Assembly: GCA_964518565.1 (NCBI GenBank)
Contig: CAZFGX010000001.1
Span: forward strand, 75,046-139,045
Direction: 5' to 3'
Source of the DNA: an uncultured Gammaproteobacteria bacterium
GTDB lineage: Bacteria; Patescibacteriota; Microgenomatia; CAZETR01; Amesbacteraceae
DNA: 64,000 nucleotides
The notes below the pieces were generated by a model. The model was not told where the DNA came from. It was given only the letters and a program-made list of their open reading frames with translations, and did not search any database. The stretch's first letter is position 1; each line of letters starts with the position of its first letter. The position numbers and the translations under genes were made by a program. Shown piece by piece: positions 2,061-49,983 of the stretch.

Positions 2061-2088
2061 AAGTCAAAGAATTCTACCACAACCTCAA

Positions 2089-4626
2089 TTATTTCCACAG
2101 GTTCAAAAAACTCTTACTGTAAAGGGCCGCTCCAAACCATAACCAGTTTTGTTCATAGTAGTTCGTTGATTGTTTTAGACCGTCTCCATCAAAATATTCC
2201 CGGTACACTTGCCCAGCCAGCAACGGGTCAGTTTCGGAAAAAACGGCCAATGGGCCTGTCAGGGTAGATAGGGTAGAGTAGGGCACCTGCTCTCTGCCAG
2301 ACAAGTCATACTCCGCTACTACTCGTTTACCATTGTGCCATGTCGATCCAAAAAAACTCTGCATTACTTCAGTCAATTCAGATTTAGCTCGATCATCACC
2401 GAACCATTGTGCATCTATAGCTATACGAAAATACGCCCGAAATGCATCAAAGCCATACAGGTCAGCGCCCGATCCCATAAATCTCGACCCACTATAAAAT
2501 TGTCCAGTTTTTTTATCTATCCACAACCAATTAGGCATCAGTCCCACTGGCGACAGTGTTCGAATACGCCCATACGTCTCATATGTATCATCTACCAACT
2601 GCATCCACGGATGACCAGGATCTATTTGACTAAAAATCTTGTAATACGCTGGCGAGAAGTAAGATGGATTGATCAGATACCCATTTTCTCGGGCTAAGTC
2701 CGGCCCTGCGATCAAATAATACTTCCCCTGTATCAGTACAACTTCTCGTTTCCAGATATCAGAAGTTATTGTTTTTGCCGCCGTCAAATATGCTGGGTTG
2801 TTCCAACGCTTACTGGCAAATGCCAATGCAATTGCCGTGTCCAAATCAGCGTCACTTGCTGCGGCGGAATCTTTTAGTTGATTATCTTTCCATAGCCACG
2901 ACAACAATTTATCCGAATCACGAAATTGCATATGGTCTCGAGTCCATTGCCAGACGCCATCAAATGTCGCCTGGTCGTTCATCTGTACCGCTCGCAACAT
3001 GGCGTACGCCTGGCCTTCAGAAGTAGTTTGTTCGCTTTGTGGGTCAATAATTTGTCCGTAAGAATGAATAAAGCTGGATTTATAAAAATTCCACGAGTCT
3101 GTCAGCTGAATTTGTTCATCGCTGCGAACCTTATAAATCGCCATCCAATCCCCATTGGCGGAAATATGGCGCTCTACATTGACATAGGTGGTTGTATCCA
3201 TGCCCCATTGAGTAACCAGATCAGCGTGAGACAACGCGAGTTCTATTGTCGGAGCGTTGAGTTCGCCAATCTGTTTCAACATTTCATGACTCAAAACAAT
3301 GTAATCGATGGATCGCCAATCCCCCTGCAATTTTTTTTCAAACACATCTCGGTCTCGCGCCACCTTCCAAAACCAATCCGCATTCGCAAATGTGGGCTCG
3401 TCTGGATGTTTGCCATACCACAAGTCATCTAAGATCGACGCATCAATTGCCATATGTGAATCTTCTGGCAACGTTTGCTTAATATAATTCACCGCCTGAC
3501 GATATGGCTCGTTCTCATTTTTGTAGTAATGCTTTACTCCCATCAGTAAAAACGCCACCATGACAATACCCAACACAACTGCCCAATGCAGTTTTTTCAC
3601 CACCTGTTGCACAACCAACCCAAAACACCACCCCGCAAACGGAAATATCGGCACGATATAAAAATCAATCACTAAGGCATTGCGCAATAAGAAAAAACCA
3701 AATCCAGCAGCCAGCAGTGCTGGCAACCGAAATGTCTTATTCCATAATGCCAGTCCACTTGCTGCCAAAATACTCACTATTCCTCCCCACACCACAATCA
3801 CATCCCGGCTCACCCATGTTCGCCACGCCATTCGAAATAGACTATCTGGATGCCAAAAGGGGACATGTACTCCTCGTCCCAATTGTTGCATCAAACTACC
3901 AAGTAAGCTCACTCGATCTCGGCTATCACCTAGCCACCCCACTGGCAATAGTTCCGTCTTTAGCGCCCCGTACAAAAAATAGCTACCTACTACCATTCCT
4001 ACAATACTCAACCACAGTCCTATTCCCATCACTCGATGTCGTCTATCTAGTTGCCACAATAAATACACCATTCCAGGTAAAAAAAAGATAACCACTTCTT
4101 TAGTCAAGGCCGCAATCCCAAAACACACCGCCGACAACATAACATGTCGCAATGTTTTTTTACCCAAGTACAACCAACTAATAGCCGCCAACAACCAAAA
4201 CACCATAATATTGTCCAAAAGTACTCGTCGATGGTAATAAATTGCCAATGGCGAAATCGAAAAAAACACTACCGCCAATACCGCTGCCAAATGCCGCTGG
4301 CTGTGTTTGCGTACCAGCCAAAACAGCATCAACGAAGAAGCAATATGCAACACCAACATAAATACCCGACCAGTATCTACCGACATCCCAAATGTAAATA
4401 GCCCGCCAGTGGCCTTGATCCACCCAGCCAAAAAGATCCACCCAGCCGGCGCATGATCATACCAATAGGTATAAGGCGCCAATTTTCCCTGGCTCAGTAG
4501 TGACCACGCCTGTGAAATATATGTCCCTTCATCGTTTTCATAATACGGATAGTTGCGCATATTAAACCCATGCGCGACTGCCGCAATTACAAGAGCGACC
4601 AAGCAGATTTTCCAAGTCCTAGTCAT
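2089..4626 (-). CDS. 845-aa fusion protein. N-terminal polytopic GT-C fold glycosyltransferase domain (PMT/ArnT, GT39/83-like) with a loop-1 DE motif. C-terminal glycoside hydrolase family 8 (BcsZ-like endoglucanase) domain.
   Basis: N-terminus has many TM helices and the motif YYENDEGTYISQAWSL. C-terminal half has TSEGQAYAMLRAVQMNDQATFDGVWQWTRDHMQ and ASDADLDTAIALAFASKRW, a near match to the GH8 signature A-[ST]-D-[AG]-D-x2-[IM]-A. Confidence 0.6.
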   Translation of the reverse strand: MTRTWKICLVALVIAAVAHGFNMRNYPYYENDEGTYISQAWSLLSQGKLAPYTYWYDHAPAGWIFLAGWIKATGGLFTFGMSVDTGRVFMLVLHIASSLMLFWLVRKHSQRHLAAVLAVVFFSISPLAIYYHRRVLLDNIMVFWLLAAISWLYLGKKTLRHVMLSAVCFGIAALTKEVVIFFLPGMVYLLWQLDRRHRVMGIGLWLSIVGMVVGSYFLYGALKTELLPVGWLGDSRDRVSLLGSLMQQLGRGVHVPFWHPDSLFRMAWRTWVSRDVIVVWGGIVSILAASGLALWNKTFRLPALLAAGFGFFLLRNALVIDFYIVPIFPFAGWCFGLVVQQVVKKLHWAVVLGIVMVAFLLMGVKHYYKNENEPYRQAVNYIKQTLPEDSHMAIDASILDDLWYGKHPDEPTFANADWFWKVARDRDVFEKKLQGDWRSIDYIVLSHEMLKQIGELNAPTIELALSHADLVTQWGMDTTTYVNVERHISANGDWMAIYKVRSDEQIQLTDSWNFYKSSFIHSYGQIIDPQSEQTTSEGQAYAMLRAVQMNDQATFDGVWQWTRDHMQFRDSDKLLSWLWKDNQLKDSAAASDADLDTAIALAFASKRWNNPAYLTAAKTITSDIWKREVVLIQGKYYLIAGPDLARENGYLINPSYFSPAYYKIFSQIDPGHPWMQLVDDTYETYGRIRTLSPVGLMPNWLWIDKKTGQFYSGSRFMGSGADLYGFDAFRAYFRIAIDAQWFGDDRAKSELTEVMQSFFGSTWHNGKRVVAEYDLSGREQVPYSTLSTLTGPLAVFSETDPLLAGQVYREYFDGDGLKQSTNYYEQNWLWFGAALYSKSFLNLWK

Positions 4627-4627
4627 C

Positions 4628-6034
4628 TTATATTGTCAGGGGAACCTGACGATGTAAATTGTAATGGGTTGTCTTCTCCCATGCTAGATTGCGACTCAAA
4701 AATCTCACCCAGGCTCGAATGCCTGCAAACGCCAATATACATATATAAGGTAAGTAAGCCACAGTTATTTGCACAGGCATCCAGATGGGATATCCCAATC
4801 GAAAATCTCGACTAAATTGCCAAACTGCAATCTGAGTGACCACAAACTGTAATCCCAAAATTGCCAGTGGCAAAAACGACAACATGGCGACTGTCATCGG
4901 TAGGTGGTACAAGATTCCCACCATTGTCATAAATGGAGTCAAAAATAACAATCCCGCCAAGACCAATGGCAAAATGAGCAAATACCCTCCCAAGAATCGT
5001 TGCTTCCAAATCGGAAATCTCCACCAATCACCCTTACGCAGTATTTGTAAAAATCCTGTATTCCATCGAGTTCGTTGTTTAATAAACGACGCCACGTCAA
5101 TCGGTGTTTCTTCTTGAGTGGCATACGCTTCATGGTACACCACACTGGTTTTCGCCCCATGCAAACTCATTCGAATTCCAATATCCCCGTCTTCAGTCAA
5201 ACATGTCTCATCCCACCCACCGACCTCCAGTAGTCGTTCTCGTTTGAAAAATACCGTATTTCCACCCAATGGCACCACTCCTCGCTTTACAAACCAAGGC
5301 AAAATAGACTTAAACCAAAAATAATATTCCAGACAGTTTAACGCCGAAAACCATCGCGATCGATAATTCACCAGTTGCACTCCACCTTGCACTACATCAG
5401 CACTGTCTCGCACCATGGTAGCTTGTACCATGTGGTAAATATCCCGGTGTGGCTGGTCTTCTGCGTCAAATACCACCACCACATCGCCCTTTGCTGCTCG
5501 CAGCCCCCAATTCAGTTGGTTAGGTTTGTTTACAGGTAAATCATCTACCACTAGTACATGTACCCGCGACAATTGATCTGCCATTTGCTGCGCTGCCGCA
5601 ATAGTCTCTGTGTCATCCGAACGGACAATTACGATCAATTCTTTCAATTGATCTGGATAATCAATTGCGGCAATCGCCGTAATAGTTTGCCCAATCACAG
5701 CGGCCTCATGTCGTACTGGTAACAAAGCCGTAAATGATAGCTGTGCCGGTACAAAATCTGCCAATTCCGTTTCTTTCGGTTCATTCCAAGCATGCAGTGT
5801 CCAACCCAAAAACACCAGCGCCTGAATCGCCATAGCCAAGTAAAACACTGCCAGTCCTCCCACAATCAGCTGACTCACAGTTACCAGCGACCAATCAATC
5901 TGTCCACCACGCCACACCAGCCATCCCAAAAGAATAGCTGCAATCAAATAAGGAAACCGCAAATATTTTTTCATAAAAAAATAATTCATCGAAGAAAAAA
6001 GTTGGGGTTGGGAGCACGTTGCCCCCAACCCCAA
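4628..6034 (-). CDS. Processive family-2 glycosyltransferase (BcsA/PgaC/NodC-like polysaccharide synthase), membrane-embedded.
   Basis: 468 aa with TM helices at both ends. Motifs DDTETIAAAQ, VVVFDAEDQ (DxD), CLTEDGDIGIRM (TED) and QRTRWNTGF (QxxRW). Confidence 0.7.
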   Translation of the reverse strand: MGLGATCSQPQLFSSMNYFFMKKYLRFPYLIAAILLGWLVWRGGQIDWSLVTVSQLIVGGLAVFYLAMAIQALVFLGWTLHAWNEPKETELADFVPAQLSFTALLPVRHEAAVIGQTITAIAAIDYPDQLKELIVIVRSDDTETIAAAQQMADQLSRVHVLVVDDLPVNKPNQLNWGLRAAKGDVVVVFDAEDQPHRDIYHMVQATMVRDSADVVQGGVQLVNYRSRWFSALNCLEYYFWFKSILPWFVKRGVVPLGGNTVFFKRERLLEVGGWDETCLTEDGDIGIRMSLHGAKTSVVYHEAYATQEETPIDVASFIKQRTRWNTGFLQILRKGDWWRFPIWKQRFLGGYLLILPLVLAGLLFLTPFMTMVGILYHLPMTVAMLSFLPLAILGLQFVVTQIAVWQFSRDFRLGYPIWMPVQITVAYLPYICILAFAGIRAWVRFLSRNLAWEKTTHYNLHRQVPLTI

Positions 6035-6039
6035 AAAAA

Positions 6040-7320
6040 CTAACGTATTACCATCGGCACAAACAGTCCGTATTTGAACTGTAAGCCAACGGAAATGCTT
6101 TGCGTAGACTCTGTCAACACAGTAGTGGTTCCTAGTTCATCCACTGTGCTATCACCGCCCACCACAAACTTGTATCCATCTGGCGCGCTCACCGTCACCG
6201 TGTAAGGGTTCTCGGGGCATCCCAGCGCAGTGCAATCAATCTGTTTAAACTGCGTATTGATATACCCCTGATCCACAGTCGTCGTGGTAAATGCGAAAGT
6301 CGAACTGACGTTGACCGTCACCGTGATGCCATCTGGCCCCACCGTATGATCATTGTTCAATCCGTCCCGATTCGTATCGATCCACAACCGACCATAGATA
6401 GTCGTGGTTTGTTCCAGTGTCGGAGAAATCGCGGTTTCAATCCAACCGATATTGGTCCAGTCATTAAATGCTGGTCCAAATCGACTCGAATAGTTATCCA
6501 GATTCACTTCCAATGCGCCAGTCAAAATCACCCCTGCGGATAGTTCTTGATCTTGACCATCATGCGCCAAGATCATCCAGCCGTTACTAAGGCCAGACAC
6601 ATATGTCACATCGTGGCTTGGATCCCAGCCGAGCGCATCCTTTTCCAAAGGGAGTCGAAATCCTGAAAACGTCTTGGCTCCCAGATCAACCGTTTCCAAC
6701 ACATACGGCGTCCCGCTGACCACATTAGTCAAGGTCATGCCATATGTATTAGCCACCAGTTGGATTACTCCACCTGGCGCTTTGATATCCAGAGCTGGAC
6801 TATGCTCCATCAATGTCAGGTGTAGATCGCATTGCTGCTGCATCCACACGCTATCAATGAAGTCATTCCATGCCCCAAACTGAAAACGTGGAACACCAAG
6901 GGTATCCAACTCGACCGTAAAAAAGTCCGTCGGTCGAATCGAGAAAAACGCCTTGCCGCCATCGCGGCTACCAGCAAACATTGTCAAACACGAGGTTCGC
7001 CCCTCAATGTAGGAAATACTTGTGGTAATTGGTGCACTCCATTGTGCTGGCGTCGTGCCTGGTAGTTGCACGCCTCGAAAGCTCATTAGTGGCAATTTTT
7101 CTACCGCCACACTCGGTGCCAACTGCGTATCAGTCAACACGTTCGACACCCGAAAGCCATCCGAGTCTGCATGAATTCCAAGGATGTATCCTCGGTTTAA
7201 TCCATGCTGATACAGACCCACGTCTGTGTACGCATACTGCAAGACTGGCTCGGCTGCCCGTACAGGCATAAACGAAAACAGACTCAACAAAACAGCCATG
7301 AATACACTTGCAAACCGCAT
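6040..7320 (-). CDS. Secreted protein of unknown function with an N-terminal signal peptide. First gene of the polysaccharide locus.
   Basis: Start chosen at MRFASVFMAVLLSLFSFMPVRAAEP. GGAGG lies 5 nt upstream on the - strand. There is a C-terminal Asp/Thr-rich segment (DTNRDGLNNDHTVGPDGITVT). The track ORF extends 11 codons further upstream (to 7353). Confidence 0.5.
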   Translation of the reverse strand: MRFASVFMAVLLSLFSFMPVRAAEPVLQYAYTDVGLYQHGLNRGYILGIHADSDGFRVSNVLTDTQLAPSVAVEKLPLMSFRGVQLPGTTPAQWSAPITTSISYIEGRTSCLTMFAGSRDGGKAFFSIRPTDFFTVELDTLGVPRFQFGAWNDFIDSVWMQQQCDLHLTLMEHSPALDIKAPGGVIQLVANTYGMTLTNVVSGTPYVLETVDLGAKTFSGFRLPLEKDALGWDPSHDVTYVSGLSNGWMILAHDGQDQELSAGVILTGALEVNLDNYSSRFGPAFNDWTNIGWIETAISPTLEQTTTIYGRLWIDTNRDGLNNDHTVGPDGITVTVNVSSTFAFTTTTVDQGYINTQFKQIDCTALGCPENPYTVTVSAPDGYKFVVGGDSTVDELGTTTVLTESTQSISVGLQFKYGLFVPMVIR

Positions 7321-7493
7321 ATCGCCTCCAAAAATGAATGAATGAAAAACCATTAATACGTCGCAATATGTGCTACTTTGTACTTCGATGAATTGTTAAG
7401 GAACCTCTCAAATTATCCCATAAAATAGCAAGAAAATCAACACTATAGGATATAGACGCCTTAGCACTCATAGAGTAGAATTGCCAATATACT

Positions 7494-8366
7494 ATGGCTG
7501 CAAAACGCGATTACTATGACGTCTTAGGTGTGCCCAAAACAGCTTCAGCTCAAGAACTAAAGTCCGCTTATCGAAAATTAGCGCTGGAATGGCACCCCGA
7601 TCGCAACAAATCTCCTGAAGCCGAGGCCAAATTCAAAGAAATAAACGAAGCCTATCAAGTCCTCTCAGATGCCAAGAAAAAAGCTTCCTACGATCAATTT
7701 GGCCATGCCGCCTTCGATCCTTCATCTGGCGGTCCAGGTGGCTTTGGTGGCCGCCAAGGTCCGTTCCAATATTCTTATTCCACCAGCGGTGGCGGCAACC
7801 CCTTCGGTAATATGGATTTTGGTGGCTTTGGTGACCCATTTGAGATTTTTGAACAGTTTTTTGGCGGTGGCGGCAACCCCTTCGGTCGCTCTGCTCCACG
7901 AAAAGCCCACTATTCACTCAAAATTCCATTCATGACCGCCATCAAGGGTGGTGAGGAAGAAGTCAAAATCGATGGCAAATCTCACAAAATCAAAATTCCC
8001 GCCGGTGCAGATACTGGGACCCATCTGCGGTTCAAAGATTTTGATATCACCTTTGAAGTCGAAGAACATGCCAAGTTTCGCCGCGAAGGTGCCGACATCT
8101 ATCTGGATCAGCCCATTCCATACACCTTAGCTATTCTCGGTGGCGAGACCACTATTCCGACGCTAGAAGGTGATCTAAAAATCAAAATTCGTTCTGGTAC
8201 TCAACCAGGCACCCTCGTTCGTCTGACTGGCAAAGGCATCACGCGTCTGAACTCCTTTTCTCGCGAGAGTCGGGGAGACTTCTACATTCGTCTAGTAGTC
8301 ACTATTCCTGAATCTGTATCCAAAAAACACCGCCAACTCTTAGAAGAGTTAGCTAAAACCGGTTAA
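7494..8366 (+). CDS. DnaJ-like co-chaperone (CbpA/class II type): J domain, Gly/Phe-rich region and C-terminal substrate-binding domain, with no CxxCxGxG zinc finger.
   Basis: [34 protein letters not shown] (HPD motif). A GGFGG/GNPFG-rich linker. No Cys repeats. Confidence 0.75.
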
Positions 8367-8498
8367 ATAATCTTGAATAAATTTTTTTGTTCTCTGCGTT
8401 TCTAAATCATAATTTTGGTCGCTCAAAACCAGACAAAATCCAGCCAACTGACTAGCCTCTTCACCTTTTTCCAACTTTAATAGAATCAAATGTAAACA

Positions 8499-9293
8499 TT
8501 ATTGTTTCTCAATAAATTTAATCAAATCATTTAGTTTATTCTTCTGAAGATCTAAACATTCCACAAAATATTTTTGTGTCATAAACGATGTTGGGTCAAA
8601 TAATGCCGAGATATTATTTTTATCAATTTCGAGCCATAACTTCATCAGTTCTGAATAAATAGCCGATAAATCCTCCGAACGCTTTCCAGAAAAACACTCC
8701 TGACTAACGCGTTCTAATCTTAAGCTCGTATCTCCTGGAAAAAACTCCACAAAGCCATCCATAAATAGTTCCGCCCCCTGAGCAAACCCCACATTCCCAA
8801 CACACTTTAAAGATGTTTCAATCAAGGCAAGCAGTCGTGAGACAAATGCCGAATAATTTGTATCGCGATCTTCACAATGTAGTCTTTTTTCAAACAAAAA
8901 TTGCTTTGTATTTCTATGTCTTTCACAAAAGTCATGCAGTTCCAGTAAGAGGTCTTGTTTAAATTTTTCTGCTTTCTCTGGATAGGTATCAAGATAATAG
9001 GGAATATCCGCCAATCGTTCACAGACATCTGCTAGGTCTGAATATAACTGCTTGCTACCATTTTTATTAACAAGGCTAAGTGAAATATAGTGCCCTGCAT
9101 CAATCAAATCATCAAAATCACACATCTCAGTAAAGTATTGATCAGCCACAAAAATTAGCAGTTCTACTTTCCGGTCATAGGACAAATTTTTCACATCCGA
9201 ATCAGTTCCAAACCGTTGCAAATAGAGATCGATCCCAGACAAGTGAGGGTTCTTGGAGGTGTTTTTATGGTCCATATTCCACAAATTATACAA
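8499..9293 (-). CDS. Hypothetical 264-aa cytoplasmic protein. Downstream partner of the zinc-ribbon repeat protein. No recognisable family.
   Basis: Long ORF with no signal peptide or TM segment. It lies 36 nt downstream of 9330-10112 on the same strand. By eye it is AT-rich compared with its neighbours. Confidence 0.5.
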   Translation of the reverse strand: MYNLWNMDHKNTSKNPHLSGIDLYLQRFGTDSDVKNLSYDRKVELLIFVADQYFTEMCDFDDLIDAGHYISLSLVNKNGSKQLYSDLADVCERLADIPYYLDTYPEKAEKFKQDLLLELHDFCERHRNTKQFLFEKRLHCEDRDTNYSAFVSRLLALIETSLKCVGNVGFAQGAELFMDGFVEFFPGDTSLRLERVSQECFSGKRSEDLSAIYSELMKLWLEIDKNNISALFDPTSFMTQKYFVECLDLQKNKLNDLIKFIEKQ

Positions 9294-9329: not shown

Positions 9330-10112
9330 TTAATCATCGTTTCCGAAAAGACTAAAGGGCTTATTAGCTTTATAGCTTGCTCTCTGGCCGTTTTCTTTAT
9401 ATCCATACTCTATCCCATGTTCATTAAGAACCTCGTTCGAAAATTTATGGAAGTCAGCCGATACTCGAAAGTGGTCAGAATATACAGTTATATGCCAATA
9501 GTCTGGACCTAAACGAGAATCCGCCTCCTTTCTAGAACTACCTGTAGATTGACGCCAATATGTCGCAAGAGCCGAGTTTGCAACAAATTGGTAATTAGAC
9601 CTCTTAGACATCTCTAAACATCTTTTACAATAGTCGGGCTGCGAAACCCAATCATGATGATATTTTACTTGATTACCACATCTCGAATTTGCACAGTCTT
9701 TTTCAGACCATCCTTTACACTTAGAACAGTATTTGGGAATCGAATGTGCAGTATCGTGATACTTAATTTCCCCACCACAATTTGGACAATTAACATAACG
9801 AAACCCCTTACACTCATTACAATACTCCGGTACATTGTCCCATTTATCGTGGAATCGTAAATCTCTTTGACAATCAGGATTTTTACAAGTCTTAGTGCGC
9901 CAGCCTCGACAGTTATTGCAATACTCAGGTATTCGATCCCAAAAAACCTTATAAGACACCTCACCATAACAATCAGGATTTGCGCAATTTTTTGTACACA
10001 GCTCATTGCAGCTCCTGCAGTATTCCGGAATTTTGTTCCAGTCATACCGATAGCTAATATCGGTTCCACAGTGCTTACAACTCGTCGTACCCCAATAATC
10101 TTCCCGTGCCAT
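9330..10112 (-). CDS. Cysteine-rich protein with five tandem zinc-ribbon-like repeats and a non-repetitive C-terminal domain of about 90 aa. Unknown function.
   Basis: Repeats: CKHCGTDISYRYDWNKIPEYCRSC / CANPDCYGEVSYKVFWDRIPEYCNNC / CKNPDCQRDLRFHDKWDNVPEYCNEC / CPNCGGEIKYHDTAHSIPKYCSKC / CANSRCGNQVKYHHDWVSQPDYCKRC. A strong RBS (taggagga) lies upstream on the - strand. Confidence 0.6.
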   Translation of the reverse strand: MAREDYWGTTSCKHCGTDISYRYDWNKIPEYCRSCNELCTKNCANPDCYGEVSYKVFWDRIPEYCNNCRGWRTKTCKNPDCQRDLRFHDKWDNVPEYCNECKGFRYVNCPNCGGEIKYHDTAHSIPKYCSKCKGWSEKDCANSRCGNQVKYHHDWVSQPDYCKRCLEMSKRSNYQFVANSALATYWRQSTGSSRKEADSRLGPDYWHITVYSDHFRVSADFHKFSNEVLNEHGIEYGYKENGQRASYKANKPFSLFGNDD

Positions 10113-11350: not shown

Positions 11351-12754
11351 ATGCTTCAAAACCGTCCGCCTATCATTGTCATTTTAGGTCATGTCGATCA
11401 TGGCAAAACTACCCTCCTGGATTATTTACGCAAATCAAACGTTGCCGCTCGTGAAGCCGGTGGTATTACCCAACACATTCGTTCGTTCCAGCTAACAGCC
11501 AACCAGTCTCAGACTCCTATCACTTTTATTGATACTCCAGGCCACGAAGCCTTTGCCGCCATGCGTTCACGTGGTAGTCAAATAGCCGATATCGCTATTT
11601 TAGTGGTTGCTGCTACTGATGGTGTCATGCCTCAGACCAAACAATCCATTGAATTCATTCGTTCAGCCAATATCCCATTCATCGTCGCCTTAAATAAATC
11701 CGATGTCCCAACAGCCGATCCGATCAAAGTCAAAACCCAGTTGGCCGAAATCAATGTCTTGGTTGAGGATTTTGGTGGCAACGTACCTTGTGTGTCTATA
11801 TCAGCTAAAACGGGCCAAGGCATTCCTGATCTTTTAGAACTCATCAATCTTCTTTCTGAAATGACTCCACCCCAAGCTGATCCTACTGCCACGGTTGAAG
11901 CAGTAGTGCTTGAAAGTCGACTCGATCCAAACAAGGGTCCTCTAGCAGTTGTCATCGTCAAGTCTGGCACTATGTCAGTCGGCCAGCAAATATTCCAAGC
12001 TTCAGAAATTGGTAAAGTACGAGCATTGATTGACCCAAATGGTCAGCAAATAAAATCCGCCGTACCTAGTATGCCAGTAGAAGTAATTGGGTTATCTATC
12101 GTCCCTGCCGTTGGCAGTCTGCTCTCAAATCAAGTGCTTACCGAAAAGCGGCCTGTCAAATCTGCCAAGGTTCAATCTGATGTTCCAAGTGAGGTCAGTC
12201 TGATTCTCAAATGTGATGTTGCTGGTTCTCTAGAAGCTATTTTAGCTTCATTGCCTAAGGAGGTTGCTGTATTAAGCTCCGGCACAGGTGAAGTTACAGA
12301 AAATGACGTTGATCTAGCCAAAAATGCTCCAGCGACAATTTTTGCTTTCAACACCAAGGTTCCTGCCTCCATTACCAAACTAGCCGAAATCAACAAGGTC
12401 AAAATAAAATCTTTCAAAATCATTTATGAACTTTTAGATAGCGCAAAAAATCTCTTGGCGCCAAAATTAATCGAAACTGTGTTAGGCAGGGCGGTCATTG
12501 CTGCCGAATTTGAAATCAATGGCGAAAAAGTTGCTGGCTGTCGCTGTACCGAAGGAGTTCTCTCTCGTGGTGATGTGTTAAAAATTATGCGTCAGGACAA
12601 ACTTATCACTACCGTCAAATTCAAGTCTCTCCAGTCTGGTAAATTGCAGGTAGAAAAAGTCAAAAGCGGCACCGAATTTGGCGCCAGTTTCAATCCTTCT
12701 GTTGATTTCAAACTACAGGATAGTATAATCGCAGTGCGCTATGACGAATCTTGA
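11351..12754 (+). CDS. infB: Translation initiation factor IF-2, short form of 467 aa (G domain plus C-terminal domains, no long N-terminal region).
   Basis: IIVILGHVDHGKTTLLD, DTPGHEAF and NKSD GTPase motifs. Position after nusA. Confidence 0.9.
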   Translation: MLQNRPPIIVILGHVDHGKTTLLDYLRKSNVAAREAGGITQHIRSFQLTANQSQTPITFIDTPGHEAFAAMRSRGSQIADIAILVVAATDGVMPQTKQSIEFIRSANIPFIVALNKSDVPTADPIKVKTQLAEINVLVEDFGGNVPCVSISAKTGQGIPDLLELINLLSEMTPPQADPTATVEAVVLESRLDPNKGPLAVVIVKSGTMSVGQQIFQASEIGKVRALIDPNGQQIKSAVPSMPVEVIGLSIVPAVGSLLSNQVLTEKRPVKSAKVQSDVPSEVSLILKCDVAGSLEAILASLPKEVAVLSSGTGEVTENDVDLAKNAPATIFAFNTKVPASITKLAEINKVKIKSFKIIYELLDSAKNLLAPKLIETVLGRAVIAAEFEINGEKVAGCRCTEGVLSRGDVLKIMRQDKLITTVKFKSLQSGKLQVEKVKSGTEFGASFNPSVDFKLQDSIIAVRYDES

Positions 12755-13655
12755 TATAAGTCATATTAAACCTCTTCTTGAATCAGCTAAGTCCGTTTCC
12801 ATCCTTCTGACCAAAAATCCTTCCTATGACGCAGTTGCCGCAGGTCTTGCATGTAAGTTAGCCCTGGACAATGCCGGCAAAATTACCCAAATCGCCTGCG
12901 AAACCCCCATGACTGTGGAGTTCAATCGACTCATTGGTGTAGATACCATCGACACCTCAGTGGGCAGTCGAAATTTGGTCATCTCGTTCCATGACCAGAC
13001 CGAATTTGTAGACAAGGTTAGTTACAATATCGACGAAGGCGAATTGCGTTTACTCATCACTCCTAAGTCTACTGCCCCAGATCTCGATCATCGTCGTCTA
13101 CGTTTTATCCCAGGCCGTAGTATTAGCGATCTGATCATCGTGATTGACGCCGACAGACTAGATCATCTGGGTCAAATCTATATCGGTGCCAAAGATGCCA
13201 TTTCCAAAGCCAAAATTATTTCCATCAACCATCGTCCTCCTGCCGATAGCTACACAACTCACCAAGTCTACGACCCACAATCTTCATCCTTATCCGAAAT
13301 CATGGCCAAATGTATCCAATCGCTAAATCTAAATCTGCATGCCGATGTCGCTACCAATTTGTTGGCAGGGTTGCAAAATCATACTCAAAATTTCCAAGCC
13401 CAGACCGTTTCCTCAGAGACATTTGAAGTCGCCGCTTTACTTCTCAAACGTGGTGCCAGTCGTCACAGTCCATTGTCAGCATCAGACTTTCCTGCCGGCT
13501 CAATCCCCAAGCAGCCTCTTCAGTCTACTCAACCTACCAACACCCCGACGCCTTCCGCAAATATCGGCTACGGCACCGATAGTAACGACCCGACCATCGA
13601 TACCCCAGCCGACTGGTACGAACCCAAAATCTATCGCGGCCCAATGCTACAATAA
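12741..13655 (+). CDS. DHH-family (NrnA-like) phosphoesterase homolog with degenerate catalytic motifs.
   Basis: Position (nusA-infB-X) and overall similarity to NrnA (ILLTKNPSYDAVAAGLACKLAL; IVIDADRLDHLG). The canonical DHH and GGGH motifs are not intact. Confidence 0.45.
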   Translation: MTNLDISHIKPLLESAKSVSILLTKNPSYDAVAAGLACKLALDNAGKITQIACETPMTVEFNRLIGVDTIDTSVGSRNLVISFHDQTEFVDKVSYNIDEGELRLLITPKSTAPDLDHRRLRFIPGRSISDLIIVIDADRLDHLGQIYIGAKDAISKAKIISINHRPPADSYTTHQVYDPQSSSLSEIMAKCIQSLNLNLHADVATNLLAGLQNHTQNFQAQTVSSETFEVAALLLKRGASRHSPLSASDFPAGSIPKQPLQSTQPTNTPTPSANIGYGTDSNDPTIDTPADWYEPKIYRGPMLQ

Positions 13656-41150: not shown

Positions 41151-41224
41151 CGGGGCGGAGTTTGACGGTAGAATGCGCGCATGGGGTGCGTGTGGAGGCA
41201 GTTCAATTCTGCCCGCCCCGACCA
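41151..41224 (+). tRNA. tRNA-Pro (anticodon GGG), 74 nt with genomically encoded 3' CCA.
   Basis: Folded by hand. Acceptor CGGGGCG/CGCCCCG (7 perfect bp), discriminator A, then CCA. T-arm GGCAG-TTCAATT-CTGCC. Anticodon arm CGCGC-ATGGGGT-GCGTG with U33, GGG at 34-36 and G37. 4-nt variable loop. The D-stem is weak (GTTT/GAAT with two G-U pairs). A TATAAT box lies at 41136-41141. Confidence 0.7.
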
Positions 41225-49718: not shown

Positions 49719-49725
49719 CTTGTGC

Positions 49726-49983
49726 CTGGAAGCGAATAAGCCAGATTCTGTATTAGTAACCATCTGTCTTTGCCCTCATGCTTTCGGTCTCGGGAAGGCG
49801 TCCTAATAGCGACCGGGTCGGAGGTTGCAGCGGGGAGGATTGCCCGTTTCACCCGAGCTTTACCTCGGTTCGTCACTGTTGCTCTAACTAGCGCTTGCGC
49901 GTCCCCCGCAAAGCGGGGGCACCCTGCCTTCTGCTGTCTGGACTTTCCTCTCCCCAAGGGGAGTAGTTACTGGCTTCCAGGCC
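49726..49983 (-). ncRNA. rnpB: RNase P RNA (bacterial, strongly minimised, about 258 nt).
   Basis: Reverse complement contains P1 (GCCUGGAAGC...GCUUCCAGGC), a P3 hairpin (CUCCCC-UUGG-GGGGAG), P4 5' strand GAGGAAAGUCC, the conserved AGAAGGCAGGGUGCC and GGUAAAGCUCGGGUGAAACGGGCAA regions, and P4 3' strand ACAGAAUCUGGCUUA. The overlapping ORFs 49667-49957 (-) and 49770-50009 (+) are spurious. Confidence 0.75.

Follow-up and report, generated by a model that had tools for sequence, protein, structure and literature searches.

A two-gene module pairing a synthase-type glycosyltransferase with a GT-C/GH8 fusion protein in Patescibacteria

The DNA studied here, called the window throughout, is a stretch of 64,000 nucleotides from contig CAZFGX010000001.1, which belongs to an uncultured bacterium placed by its GTDB lineage in the Patescibacteriota (Microgenomatia, Amesbacteraceae). 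On its minus strand lies a translationally coupled two-gene module: the first gene encodes a membrane glycosyltransferase of family 2 (GT2) of the synthase type, and the second a fusion protein in which a membrane transferase of the GT-C fold is followed by a glycoside hydrolase domain of family 8 (GH8). From the domain identities, the motifs and the genomic coupling, we infer a polymer, an acceptor and a complex. Tentatively, and with a probability that we put just short of even, the module is responsible for making an extracytoplasmic β-linked glycan and for processing it, the product serving in the envelope or matrix of a Microgenomates-type Patescibacteria cell.

The proposed route has four steps. 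The GT2, to judge from its domains, would use a nucleotide sugar to lengthen a sugar chain on the inner side of the membrane. The chain would cross the membrane through or beside the GT2, at a complex with the 11-helix GT-C domain: since about 4-5 membrane helices are all that the GT2 has, it probably works together with this partner. The outward-facing GT-C domain, as its motifs and context suggest, would use as donor a polyprenyl-phosphate-linked sugar that an ArnC/AglJ-like GT2 makes and GtrA flips, and would decorate the emerging polymer with it, much as other wall polymers are decorated by Gtr, YfhO and GacL systems. The tethered GH8 domain, whose catalytic residues are in place, may then cut, trim or release a β-1,4-glucan-like chain, as BcsZ does for cellulose. 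A bolder proposal, which we consider possible but doubtful, is that of a new pathway class, in which a minimal processive synthase, unable to act by itself, is obligately coupled, at times within a single polypeptide, to a GT-C enzyme; this enzyme would complete export and use polyprenyl-phosphate-sugars to modify or anchor the chain, and the hydrolase would be an exchangeable cassette. If this were true, the main envelope glycan of Microgenomates-type Patescibacteria may be the product of this class, which would reach at least as far as the Chloroflexota.

The two proteins of the module

The initial annotation described three tightly packed minus-strand genes, separated by gaps of 1-5 nt and followed by fusA. 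Three co-directional open reading frames (ORFs) do lie where it placed them (region 7353..2089, then fusA), and the gap of 1 nt between the GT2 gene and the fusion gene stands (TAA G ATG). The gap of 5 nt between the first ORF (ORF1) and the GT2 gene does not, as it needs a TTG start at 6034. Gene callers on two identical metagenomic contigs start the GT2 gene at ATG 5974, which gives a protein of 448 aa and a gap of 65 nt to ORF1; an in-frame ATG at 5989 is another possible start. We rejected TTG 6034, which the callers do not use and which sits, as its first base, in a terminator-like hairpin (6034..6002) made of a 15-pair stem with 9 G-C pairs and a 3-nt loop, then CTTTTTTCTT, ending just before the GT2 start. 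This strong hairpin, which may terminate transcription or attenuate it, marks the upstream boundary of the conserved module; the GT2 gene may be transcribed by read-through or from an internal promoter. Because the 5-nt gap rests on a codon inside it, the locus consists of two coupled genes and a neighbour rather than of three packed genes, and the conserved unit is made of the GT2 and fusion genes (Table 1).

The assignment of the first protein to GT2 holds, with matches to PF13641 (Glyco_tranf_2_3; E=1e-39, 137 bits, cut-off 27), PF13632 (2e-22, 80 bits) and PF00535 (49 bits). The DxD, TED and QxxRW motifs that had been claimed for it are present as DAED (aa 170-173, nt 5467-5456), TED (5197-5189) and QRTRW (5077-5063), and are invariant in 41 orthologues at 44-59% identity. 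An RSDD motif, likewise invariant, occupies aa 118-121, and the C-terminal WEKTTHYNLHR (nt 4681-4649) follows a pattern, W-E-K-T-x-H-x-N-x-H-R, that is invariant in the same orthologues. Two N-terminal transmembrane (TM) helices precede a cytoplasmic GT-A domain, interfacial helices and 2-3 C-terminal membrane helices. In the AlphaFold2 (AF2) model (pLDDT 90.9), QRTRW falls within helix 294-314. When the synthase fold was checked with Foldseek, the best matches of this model were BcsA (E. coli, Rhodobacter), PcManGT, and viral and vertebrate hyaluronan synthases (HAS), with E=5e-15 to 1e-10 and TM-scores on the query of 0.52-0.64. A search of the same results for non-processive enzymes of the DPM type found no GtrB or DPMS structure within the top 50. 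On the NCBIfam and Foldseek results, a DPM-synthase or GtrB-type enzyme was rejected for the window protein; the ArnC-like domain that occurs in orthologues is a separate one. Model and motifs thus support a membrane-embedded enzyme of the synthase type, with processive synthesis and export as its putative activities.

The GT2 C-tail is placed in the cytoplasm by positive-inside counts and by the topology of a triple fusion described below. As that fusion has no TM segment between the second C-terminal helix of the GT2 and the first TM helix of the GT-C domain, the likely topology is 2+2 TM helices plus interfacial helices. With regard to a channel, BcsA and HAS have at least 6 TM helices, against the 2 N-terminal and 2-3 C-terminal helices found here; with so few, the export path would have to be completed by a partner, unless the enzyme acts on a lipid-linked acceptor. 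A PilZ domain was sought in the GT2 without a match, the protein ending 22 aa past its last helix. The initial annotation had also remarked on the lack of BcsB and BcsC, and for BcsB this agrees with the related loci, none of which has a conserved BcsB-like neighbour.

That the third ORF encodes a GT-C/GH8 fusion was borne out by matches of residues 67-212 to PMT (32.7 bits, cut-off 22.7) and PMT_2 (32.4, cut-off 26.1). The N-terminal 495 residues were modelled as about 11 TM helices and a small α/β domain (AF2, pLDDT 78), and the top 22 Foldseek matches of this model are all GT-C enzymes (STT3, ArnT, Pmt4, PglB, ALG12, DPY19, Pmt1/2, EmbB/C, ALG3/9, AftB and GPI-MT-I); NCBIfam adds a weak match to Agl23. 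The characteristic sites are the first-loop PYYENDEGTY (nt 4548-4519), YTYWYDHAPAGW (4473-4438), RRVLLDN (4230-4210) and TKE (4104-4096). Across 36 sequences at 42-49% identity, E30, D32 and E33 of the first loop (YYENDEGTY) are invariant, and Y52-W63 (YTYWYDHAPAGW), R133/R134, D138/N139 and K176/E177 are invariant or nearly so. Since catalytic-type motifs stay invariant at such identities, this is the pattern of an active transferase rather than of a decayed anchor. The GH8 part of what had been said of this gene is correct, but the GT-C domain is more than an add-on, being universally conserved as partner to the GT2.

The stretch from the last TM helix to the GH8 domain is a conserved α/β linker (aa 366-495), predicted to be outside the membrane, which matches no Pfam family and ends in an invariant STNGDW. 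Given 11 TM helices and a topology of the usual GT-C kind, linker and GH8 would face outward, in agreement with the signal-anchored GH8 of a second, divergent triad (see below). The GH8 assignment also holds (PF01270, residues 497-826, 161 bits, cut-off 24, E=3.9e-47). In the PDB, 38 GH8 chains were matched, the best being C. thermocellum CelA (1CEM, E=4e-29), with BcsZ-type enzymes at about 1e-23. The catalytic acid, E537 (TTSEGQA, nt 3027-3007), aligns with CelA E95 and is invariant in 36 family members; the catalytic base, D727 (YGFDAFR, nt 2457-2437), aligns with CelA D278 and is at least 90% conserved in the 36 members; and a DAD cluster is formed by D592/D594/D596. These alignments support a catalytically intact, CelA/BcsZ-like GH8.

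Table 1. Coordinates of the module and of its parts in the window
Feature	Position (nt)	Strand	Basis or note
Synthase-type GT2 gene, 448 aa	4628..5974	-	ORF, gene call, Pfam, motifs, AF2, Foldseek
GT-C/GH8 fusion gene, 845 aa	2089..4626	-	start 1 nt past GT2 stop
GT-C membrane domain, aa 1-365, ~11 TM helices	3532..4626	-	Pfam, invariant columns, AF2, Foldseek
Conserved α/β linker domain, aa 366-495	3142..3531	-	model secondary structure, conservation
GH8 (α/α)6 hydrolase domain, aa 497-845	2092..3138	-	Pfam PF01270, CelA alignment
Terminator-like hairpin and T-run	5992..6034	-	between ORFan gene and GT2 start

Conservation and variants of the pair in related loci

Domain-specific hidden Markov models (HMMs) were built and run over 120 fetched loci (numbered with L below). 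The fusion belongs to a large family, with 758 scored clusters (90% identity) and matches in at least 579 metagenomic stretches; an exhaustive search of 50%-identity representatives gave 4825 matches, 677 of them at E<=1e-30. The GT-C/GH8 architecture is found in 120/120 of the best homologues of the fusion and in 104 of the best 148 new representatives. The relatives that carry a name all belong to the Roizman-, Woese-, Shapiro- or Levybacteria or to a 'Patescibacteria group'. Databases name these proteins 'glycosyl hydrolase family 8', 'hypothetical' or 'endoglucanase Y/ArnT-like', and the present analysis corrects the labels of GT-C/GH8 proteins.

Comparison of genome contexts showed the linkage of GT2 and GH8 to be strongly conserved in related loci. 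An orthologous GT2 gene lies directly upstream, on the same strand, of 51 of the 56 GT-C genes with room upstream, the five exceptions being second tandem copies (L053, L073), a fragment (L087), a 1.1-kb gap (L092) and a rearranged locus (L090). The two genes overlap in L039 and L122, and GT2, GT-C and GH8 form a triple fusion in one protein of 1331 aa (P0316), found on two contigs (L123 5001-8996). Adjacency, overlap and triple fusion are strong signs of joint action by the two window proteins, probably within one complex. The setting of the triple fusion in L123 is high in GC and does not look like the candidate phyla radiation (CPR); it includes an extracytoplasmic function (ECF) sigma/anti-sigma pair, a Ser/Thr kinase and an FHA-peptidase.

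This conservation bears on the idea that the hydrolase is degradative or predatory, a surface-tethered GH8 attacking host or environmental β-glycans for nutrition or attachment, with the GT2 unrelated to it. The GH8 family includes free cellulases, xylanases and chitosanases, and many Patescibacteria live as epibionts and have few genes for biosynthesis. A near-universal position next to a synthase-type GT2 gene on the same strand, with cases of overlap and even fusion, is, however, the pattern of an exopolysaccharide (EPS) operon with its cognate hydrolase, and no conserved genes for sugar uptake or catabolism lie alongside, so that we hold this to be the least probable of the readings considered here. 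A cognate hydrolase is typical of EPS operons, as illustrated by BcsZ, PslG and PgaB.

The hydrolase is nevertheless the more variable element of the family. Across 68 GT-C genes, GH8 is fused in 50, separate but nearby in 3 and absent in 7, with a contig end in the remaining 8; hence 7/60 GT-C genes not cut by a contig end have no hydrolase, and the GT-C partner in L015 likewise lacks one. Where the genes are split, the order can be GH8, GT2, GT-C (L096, L097, L103), and a fusion of a CesA-like GT2 with GH8, without GT-C, also exists. In sister subfamilies the same GT-C is found fused to a GH3 N-terminal (NagZ-like) domain (L108 6902-9334, P0341, P0347, P0354, P0361, P0377), or next to a GH3 gene in place of a fused GH8 (L088 8527-9777); in L085 (8640-11640) the GT-C gene is followed by a GtrA-GT2 fusion and a GH39-like gene. 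The hydrolase cassette is thus exchangeable between GH8, GH3 and GH39-like forms. The earlier suggestion that GT2 and GH8 mimic a BcsA/BcsZ core can be kept as regards the fold, the intact GH8 and the conserved linkage, but not as regards identity, all equivalog cut-offs being missed; and 'cellulose-like' is an inference for a system whose hydrolase partner can also be GH3 or GH39-like.

A second triad combines the same three activities in another form: a TM-anchored GH8 of 391 aa, a CesA-like GT2 of 521 aa (Cellulose_synt, 1.6e-16) and a separate PMT_2 GT-C protein of 507 aa. It occurs in about 25 Patescibacteria loci (L008-L036, L111, L116 and L120; e.g. L023 9884-14164). Its GT2 is 23% identical to that of the window (hhalign probability 97.6%), and its GT-C aligns with the window GT-C only near the DE and H-x-P motifs. 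Both module types can be present in one metagenome-assembled genome (MAG; L006 and L016). As the combination recurs in two deeply divergent forms, a chance fusion is unlikely and a real three-activity system is indicated. Beside the second triad, a second, larger GH8 is encoded on the opposite strand in L021, L023 and L035, and an ArnC-like gene lies 3' of the GT-C gene in L012 and L014.

These variants also inform a simpler view, close to that of the initial annotation, in which the pair is a minimal BcsA/BcsZ-like β-glucan system and the GT-C domain serves only as an anchor or scaffold for GH8, maybe as part of the channel in the manner of BcsB or PgaD. The clear Bcs analogues are indeed the GT2 and the GH8, no polyprenyl-phosphate-sugar synthase or GtrA is found beside the pair in the window or in most related loci, and the CesA-like GT2-GH8 fusion dispenses with GT-C. 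Yet a mere anchor would not hold the GT-C signature residues invariant at 42-49% identity, the GT-C partner persists in loci without a hydrolase, ArnC-like and GtrA genes recur as fusions or neighbours, and the second triad keeps a separate GT-C although its GH8 has its own TM anchor. We therefore rate the scaffold role as rather improbable, and continue with the GT-C domain as an active partner of the synthase.

What links this partner to lipid-borne sugars is found in relatives. An extra N-terminal GT2 domain is present in 52/120 of the best GT2 orthologues, and its best NCBIfam matches are polyprenyl-phosphate-sugar synthases: ArnC, AglJ, PpgS and dolichyl-phosphate hexose transferase. Counted by locus, an ArnC/AglJ-like domain is fused or adjacent in 14/44. 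GtrA is encoded downstream of the fusion gene in L039, is fused to the GT2 in P0173, and forms the GtrA-GT2 fusion found after the GT-C gene in L085. A paralogous gene of 742 aa, joining an ArnC-like domain to a synthase-like GT2, was seen at a distance of a few kb from the main pair in L121 (region 4683-8486) and also in L041, L043, L046, L091, L045, L069 and L095. In L121 the paralogue is followed by a multi-TM protein of 523 aa with no Pfam match and a weak likeness to the GT-C core (hhalign 48%), and this paralogous pair may be a third variant of the theme.

Regulatory domains also differ among lineages. The window GT2 has no sensory domain, and N-terminal FHA domains occur on the GT2 of relatives (P0222, and L015 7554-11503). 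L015 is a MAG of the Chloroflexota (Aggregatilineales) in which the FHA-bearing GT2 and a hydrolase-free GT-C lie beside FHA and VWA proteins. Ser/Thr kinases are encoded near the module in L073 (9583-11022, the kinase gene following the module) and L123. These FHA domains and kinases suggest control through phospho-threonine rather than cyclic di-GMP in some lineages. Small HTH_17 (excisionase/MerR-like) genes lie directly upstream of long-type modules on unrelated contigs (L039 5567-5806, L122 9283-9988).

Polymer export or a lipid-linked pathway

The fusions of ArnC-like domains with GT2 raise the question of whether the chain is built on a lipid. In such a lipid-linked pathway, an ArnC/AglJ-like enzyme would load the first sugar on polyprenyl phosphate, the GT2 would extend this primer at the inner face, in the manner of PcManGT or the Agl enzymes, the GT-C would transfer the product after flipping, and GH8 would trim or release it; the acceptor would be a protein, the peptidoglycan or a lipid of the envelope, and either a glycan or successive sugars would be moved. 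A fusion of ArnC/AglJ-like and GT2 domains is what one would expect for consecutive steps on one carrier. The GT2 has few TM helices and covers PcManGT nearly fully (TM-score 0.70 on the target), with an E-value equal to that for BcsA, and the GT-C domain is as STT3-, PglB- and PMT-like as it is ArnT-like, with its weak Agl23 match. Such a pathway best explains the ArnC-like-GT2 fusions and the small number of TM helices. A long polymer is indicated, on the other hand, by the invariant QxxRW and TED motifs, the BcsA/HAS-like interfacial helices and the steady endo-hydrolase partners; most loci, the window included, have no ArnC-like domain; and most GT-C enzymes use single sugars from polyprenyl monophosphate. 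On this balance we regard the lipid-linked pathway as unlikely, though one to be taken seriously.

Several results weigh against our preferred reading of a synthase that exports a β-linked glycan with the help of a GT-C partner. The GT2 stays well under the BcsA cut-offs (TIGR03030, 47 vs 699 bits; NF008558, 36 vs 992) and under that of PgaC/IcaA (TIGR03937, 68 bits, cut-off 422), its best NCBIfam match (E=7e-19), as it does under those of every other named synthase; the GH8 domain, at 125 bits (E=2e-36), is under the cut-off of 299 of the BcsZ model NF008305. As both miss curated cut-offs, any particular sugar or linkage is a guess. With about 4-5 membrane helices, the GT2 falls short of the number in BcsA and HAS and is closer to PcManGT, which is reported to act on a lipid-linked acceptor and is not known as a polymer exporter. 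Modest, too, are the matches of the GT-C domain in Pfam and the PDB, at E about 1e-7 and TM-scores of about 0.45-0.5; its top 22 Foldseek matches span E=1e-4 to 0.17 and TM about 0.33-0.52. In the triple fusion, QxxRW is degenerate (QRTDR) and TED is replaced by AED. No GtrA or ArnC-like gene was found by tblastn or HMM in the 64-kb window, which covers ~6% of a roughly 1-Mb genome, and most related loci likewise have no polyprenyl-phosphate-sugar synthase or GtrA beside the pair; under the proposed route, these proteins must be encoded elsewhere in the genome, as they are absent from the window.

The envelope biology of Patescibacteria is almost uncharacterised, and hundreds of these tiny-genome bacteria keep the pair, often in two paralogous versions, which suggests an important surface polymer, with a role for instance in host attachment or wall structure. 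The mechanism proposed here would join two subjects that are usually taught apart, synthase-dependent polymer export and glycosylation by polyprenyl-phosphate-sugars and GT-C enzymes. Its natural fusions (GT-C with GH8, ArnC-like with GT2, and GT2 with GT-C and GH8) make for a compact and tractable two-gene system.

Surroundings of the module and comparison with known systems

Both flanking genes are neighbours of the module and lie outside it. Upstream, ORF1 (7320..6040, minus strand, 426 aa) has the signal-peptide-like N-terminus attributed to it (MRFASVFMAVLLSLFSFMPVRA before AE), which is its sole hydrophobic segment, and its C-terminal region shows a weak SdrD_B/CNA-B-like signal under the Pfam cut-off. 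Among 5.8 billion proteins searched, it found no homologue but itself. We rejected it as a part of the module, tblastn giving no match in any related locus; its place in an EPS-type locus, as first proposed, is thus not upheld for a secreted ORFan that is set apart by the terminator-like hairpin.

A secreted product just upstream had some bearing on a further reading, in which the module would O-glycosylate secreted or surface proteins (pili, an S-layer, or the neighbouring ORFan), with the GT2 supplying or extending the glycan and GH8 editing it. Besides this gene, the PMT and PMT_2 family matches and the presence of Pmt4 and Pmt1/2 among the fold matches speak for it. Against these stand the want of a MIR domain in the fusion protein (none by Pfam), equally good matches to ArnT and STT3, a secreted protein that is not conserved with the module, and fusions to polysaccharide endo-hydrolases, which favour a polysaccharide substrate. 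We judge protein O-glycosylation to be very improbable.

Downstream, 28 nt separate the stop codon of the fusion gene from the ATG of fusA on the same strand, as initially described. The adjacency, which had been called odd for an EPS locus, is incidental: a conserved link was rejected, since fusA occurs in one unrelated locus only, distant from GH8, and related pairs adjoin genes for EF-P and an aminoacyl-tRNA synthetase (tRNA-synt_2 family), restriction-modification genes or other glycan genes. It is an effect of the compact genome. The 28-nt spacer (2061-2088, minus strand) contains TGgTAGAAT, an extended -10-like element ending about 10 nt before the fusA ATG; transcription of fusA may thus start from a promoter of its own, leaving only a very short leader, and the gene is here outside a str-operon context.

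The window has the look of a Patescibacteria (CPR) genome; its encoded proteins are met again on a 1.0-Mb contig, and housekeeping genes (DnaJ, NusA, a short IF2, EF-G) surround the module. IF2 (11351-12754, plus strand) has only 467 aa, without the long N-terminal region of typical bacterial IF2. A single tRNA gene, Pro-GGG (41151-41224), was found in the 64 kb, and GC skew on the plus strand is persistently negative across the window. A short RNase P RNA (~261 nt; 49721-49981, minus strand) scores 87.6 bits with the archaeal Rfam model (cut-off 84) and 88.2 bits with bacterial class A, under the cut-off of 100; it has the appearance of a reduced RNA of the bacterial type, with the 'archaeal' label a threshold artefact. 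A Cys-rich protein of 260 aa (9330-10112, minus strand) has about six zinc-ribbon-like repeats, CxxC...(I/V)PEYCxxC, and belongs to no Pfam family; nor do the products of the adjoining ORFs at 8499-9293 (minus strand, 264 aa) and 12741-13655 (plus strand, 304 aa).

Turning to known systems, our literature search, outside which many subscription-journal papers lie, found none on GT-C/GH8 fusions or on a synthase/GT-C/GH8 system of Patescibacteria. The closest system is that of BcsA and BcsZ (E. coli, Rhodobacter, Komagataeibacter), which shares with the module a membrane GT2 with D, DxD, TED and a QxxRW motif on an interfacial helix, and an extracytoplasmic GH8 in the same operon with its catalytic Glu and Asp intact; the BcsA structures 9b8v_E and 4p00_A are the best Foldseek matches of the window GT2. 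The differences are considerable: the window GT2 is only 17-20% identical to BcsA, has about 4-5 TM helices in 448 aa compared to 8 in BcsA, and lacks PilZ, related loci have no conserved BcsB- or BcsC-like neighbour, and the GH8 is fused to a GT-C transferase. To our knowledge, no described type of Bcs operon contains a GT-C transferase. A functional analogy exists with the phosphoethanolamine (pEtN) cellulose of E. coli, where a membrane-anchored enzyme seated on the synthase, BcsG, modifies the nascent chain outside the membrane before BcsZ processes it, and complexes of BcsA and BcsG (9fmv, 9fmz, 9b8v) are among the fold matches of the GT2. Unlike GT-C enzymes, BcsG is a pEtN transferase of the alkaline-phosphatase superfamily, and its donor is a lipid head group, not a polyprenyl-phosphate-sugar; in the module, chemistry of the Gtr/YfhO/GacL type would take the place of pEtN transfer.

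PgaC/PgaD and the stand-alone synthases HAS and NodC have similar dimensions, with 2 N-terminal and 2-3 C-terminal helices, and HAS structures rank right after BcsA. PgaC requires the small membrane protein PgaD, a precedent for a minimal synthase that depends on a partner; the partner in the window is an 11-TM GT-C instead of PgaD, and no deacetylase or porin genes lie alongside. PcManGT of Pyrobaculum calidifontis (PDB 6YV7), a minimal cellulose-synthase-like mannosyltransferase, is an equal-best structural match (phmmer E 1e-7) and another small membrane GT2 in which no complete channel is obvious. It is 17-19% identical to the window GT2 and has no link to GH or GT-C fusions; Gandini et al. 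are said to have assigned it, in 2020, to the archaeal N-glycan pathway.

For the GT-C side, the relevant systems are GtrA/GtrB/GtrC, CsbB/GtcA/YfhO, GacI/GacK/GacL, ArnC/ArnT and Ppm1/Pmt. They share with the module a GT-C with an acidic first-loop motif, and relatives of the module carry an ArnC/AglJ/PpgS-like synthase and a GtrA-family protein, fused or adjacent. In contrast to these systems, the obligatory partner in the module is a synthase-type GT2 and not a GtrB-type enzyme, and the GT-C carries a hydrolase domain. The B. subtilis ydaJKLMN operon, likened here by description, is an EPS operon of a monoderm with a putative glycosyl hydrolase (YdaJ) and a GT2-type synthase component; its polymer differs in reacting with an α-Gal/GalNAc lectin (PMC13274460), so that a hydrolase and a GT2 in one operon need not mean cellulose. 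Set against all these systems, the parts of the module are known, as is the logic of an EPS synthase with its cognate hydrolase; what is new is the obligatory GT-C partner and the modular fusions.

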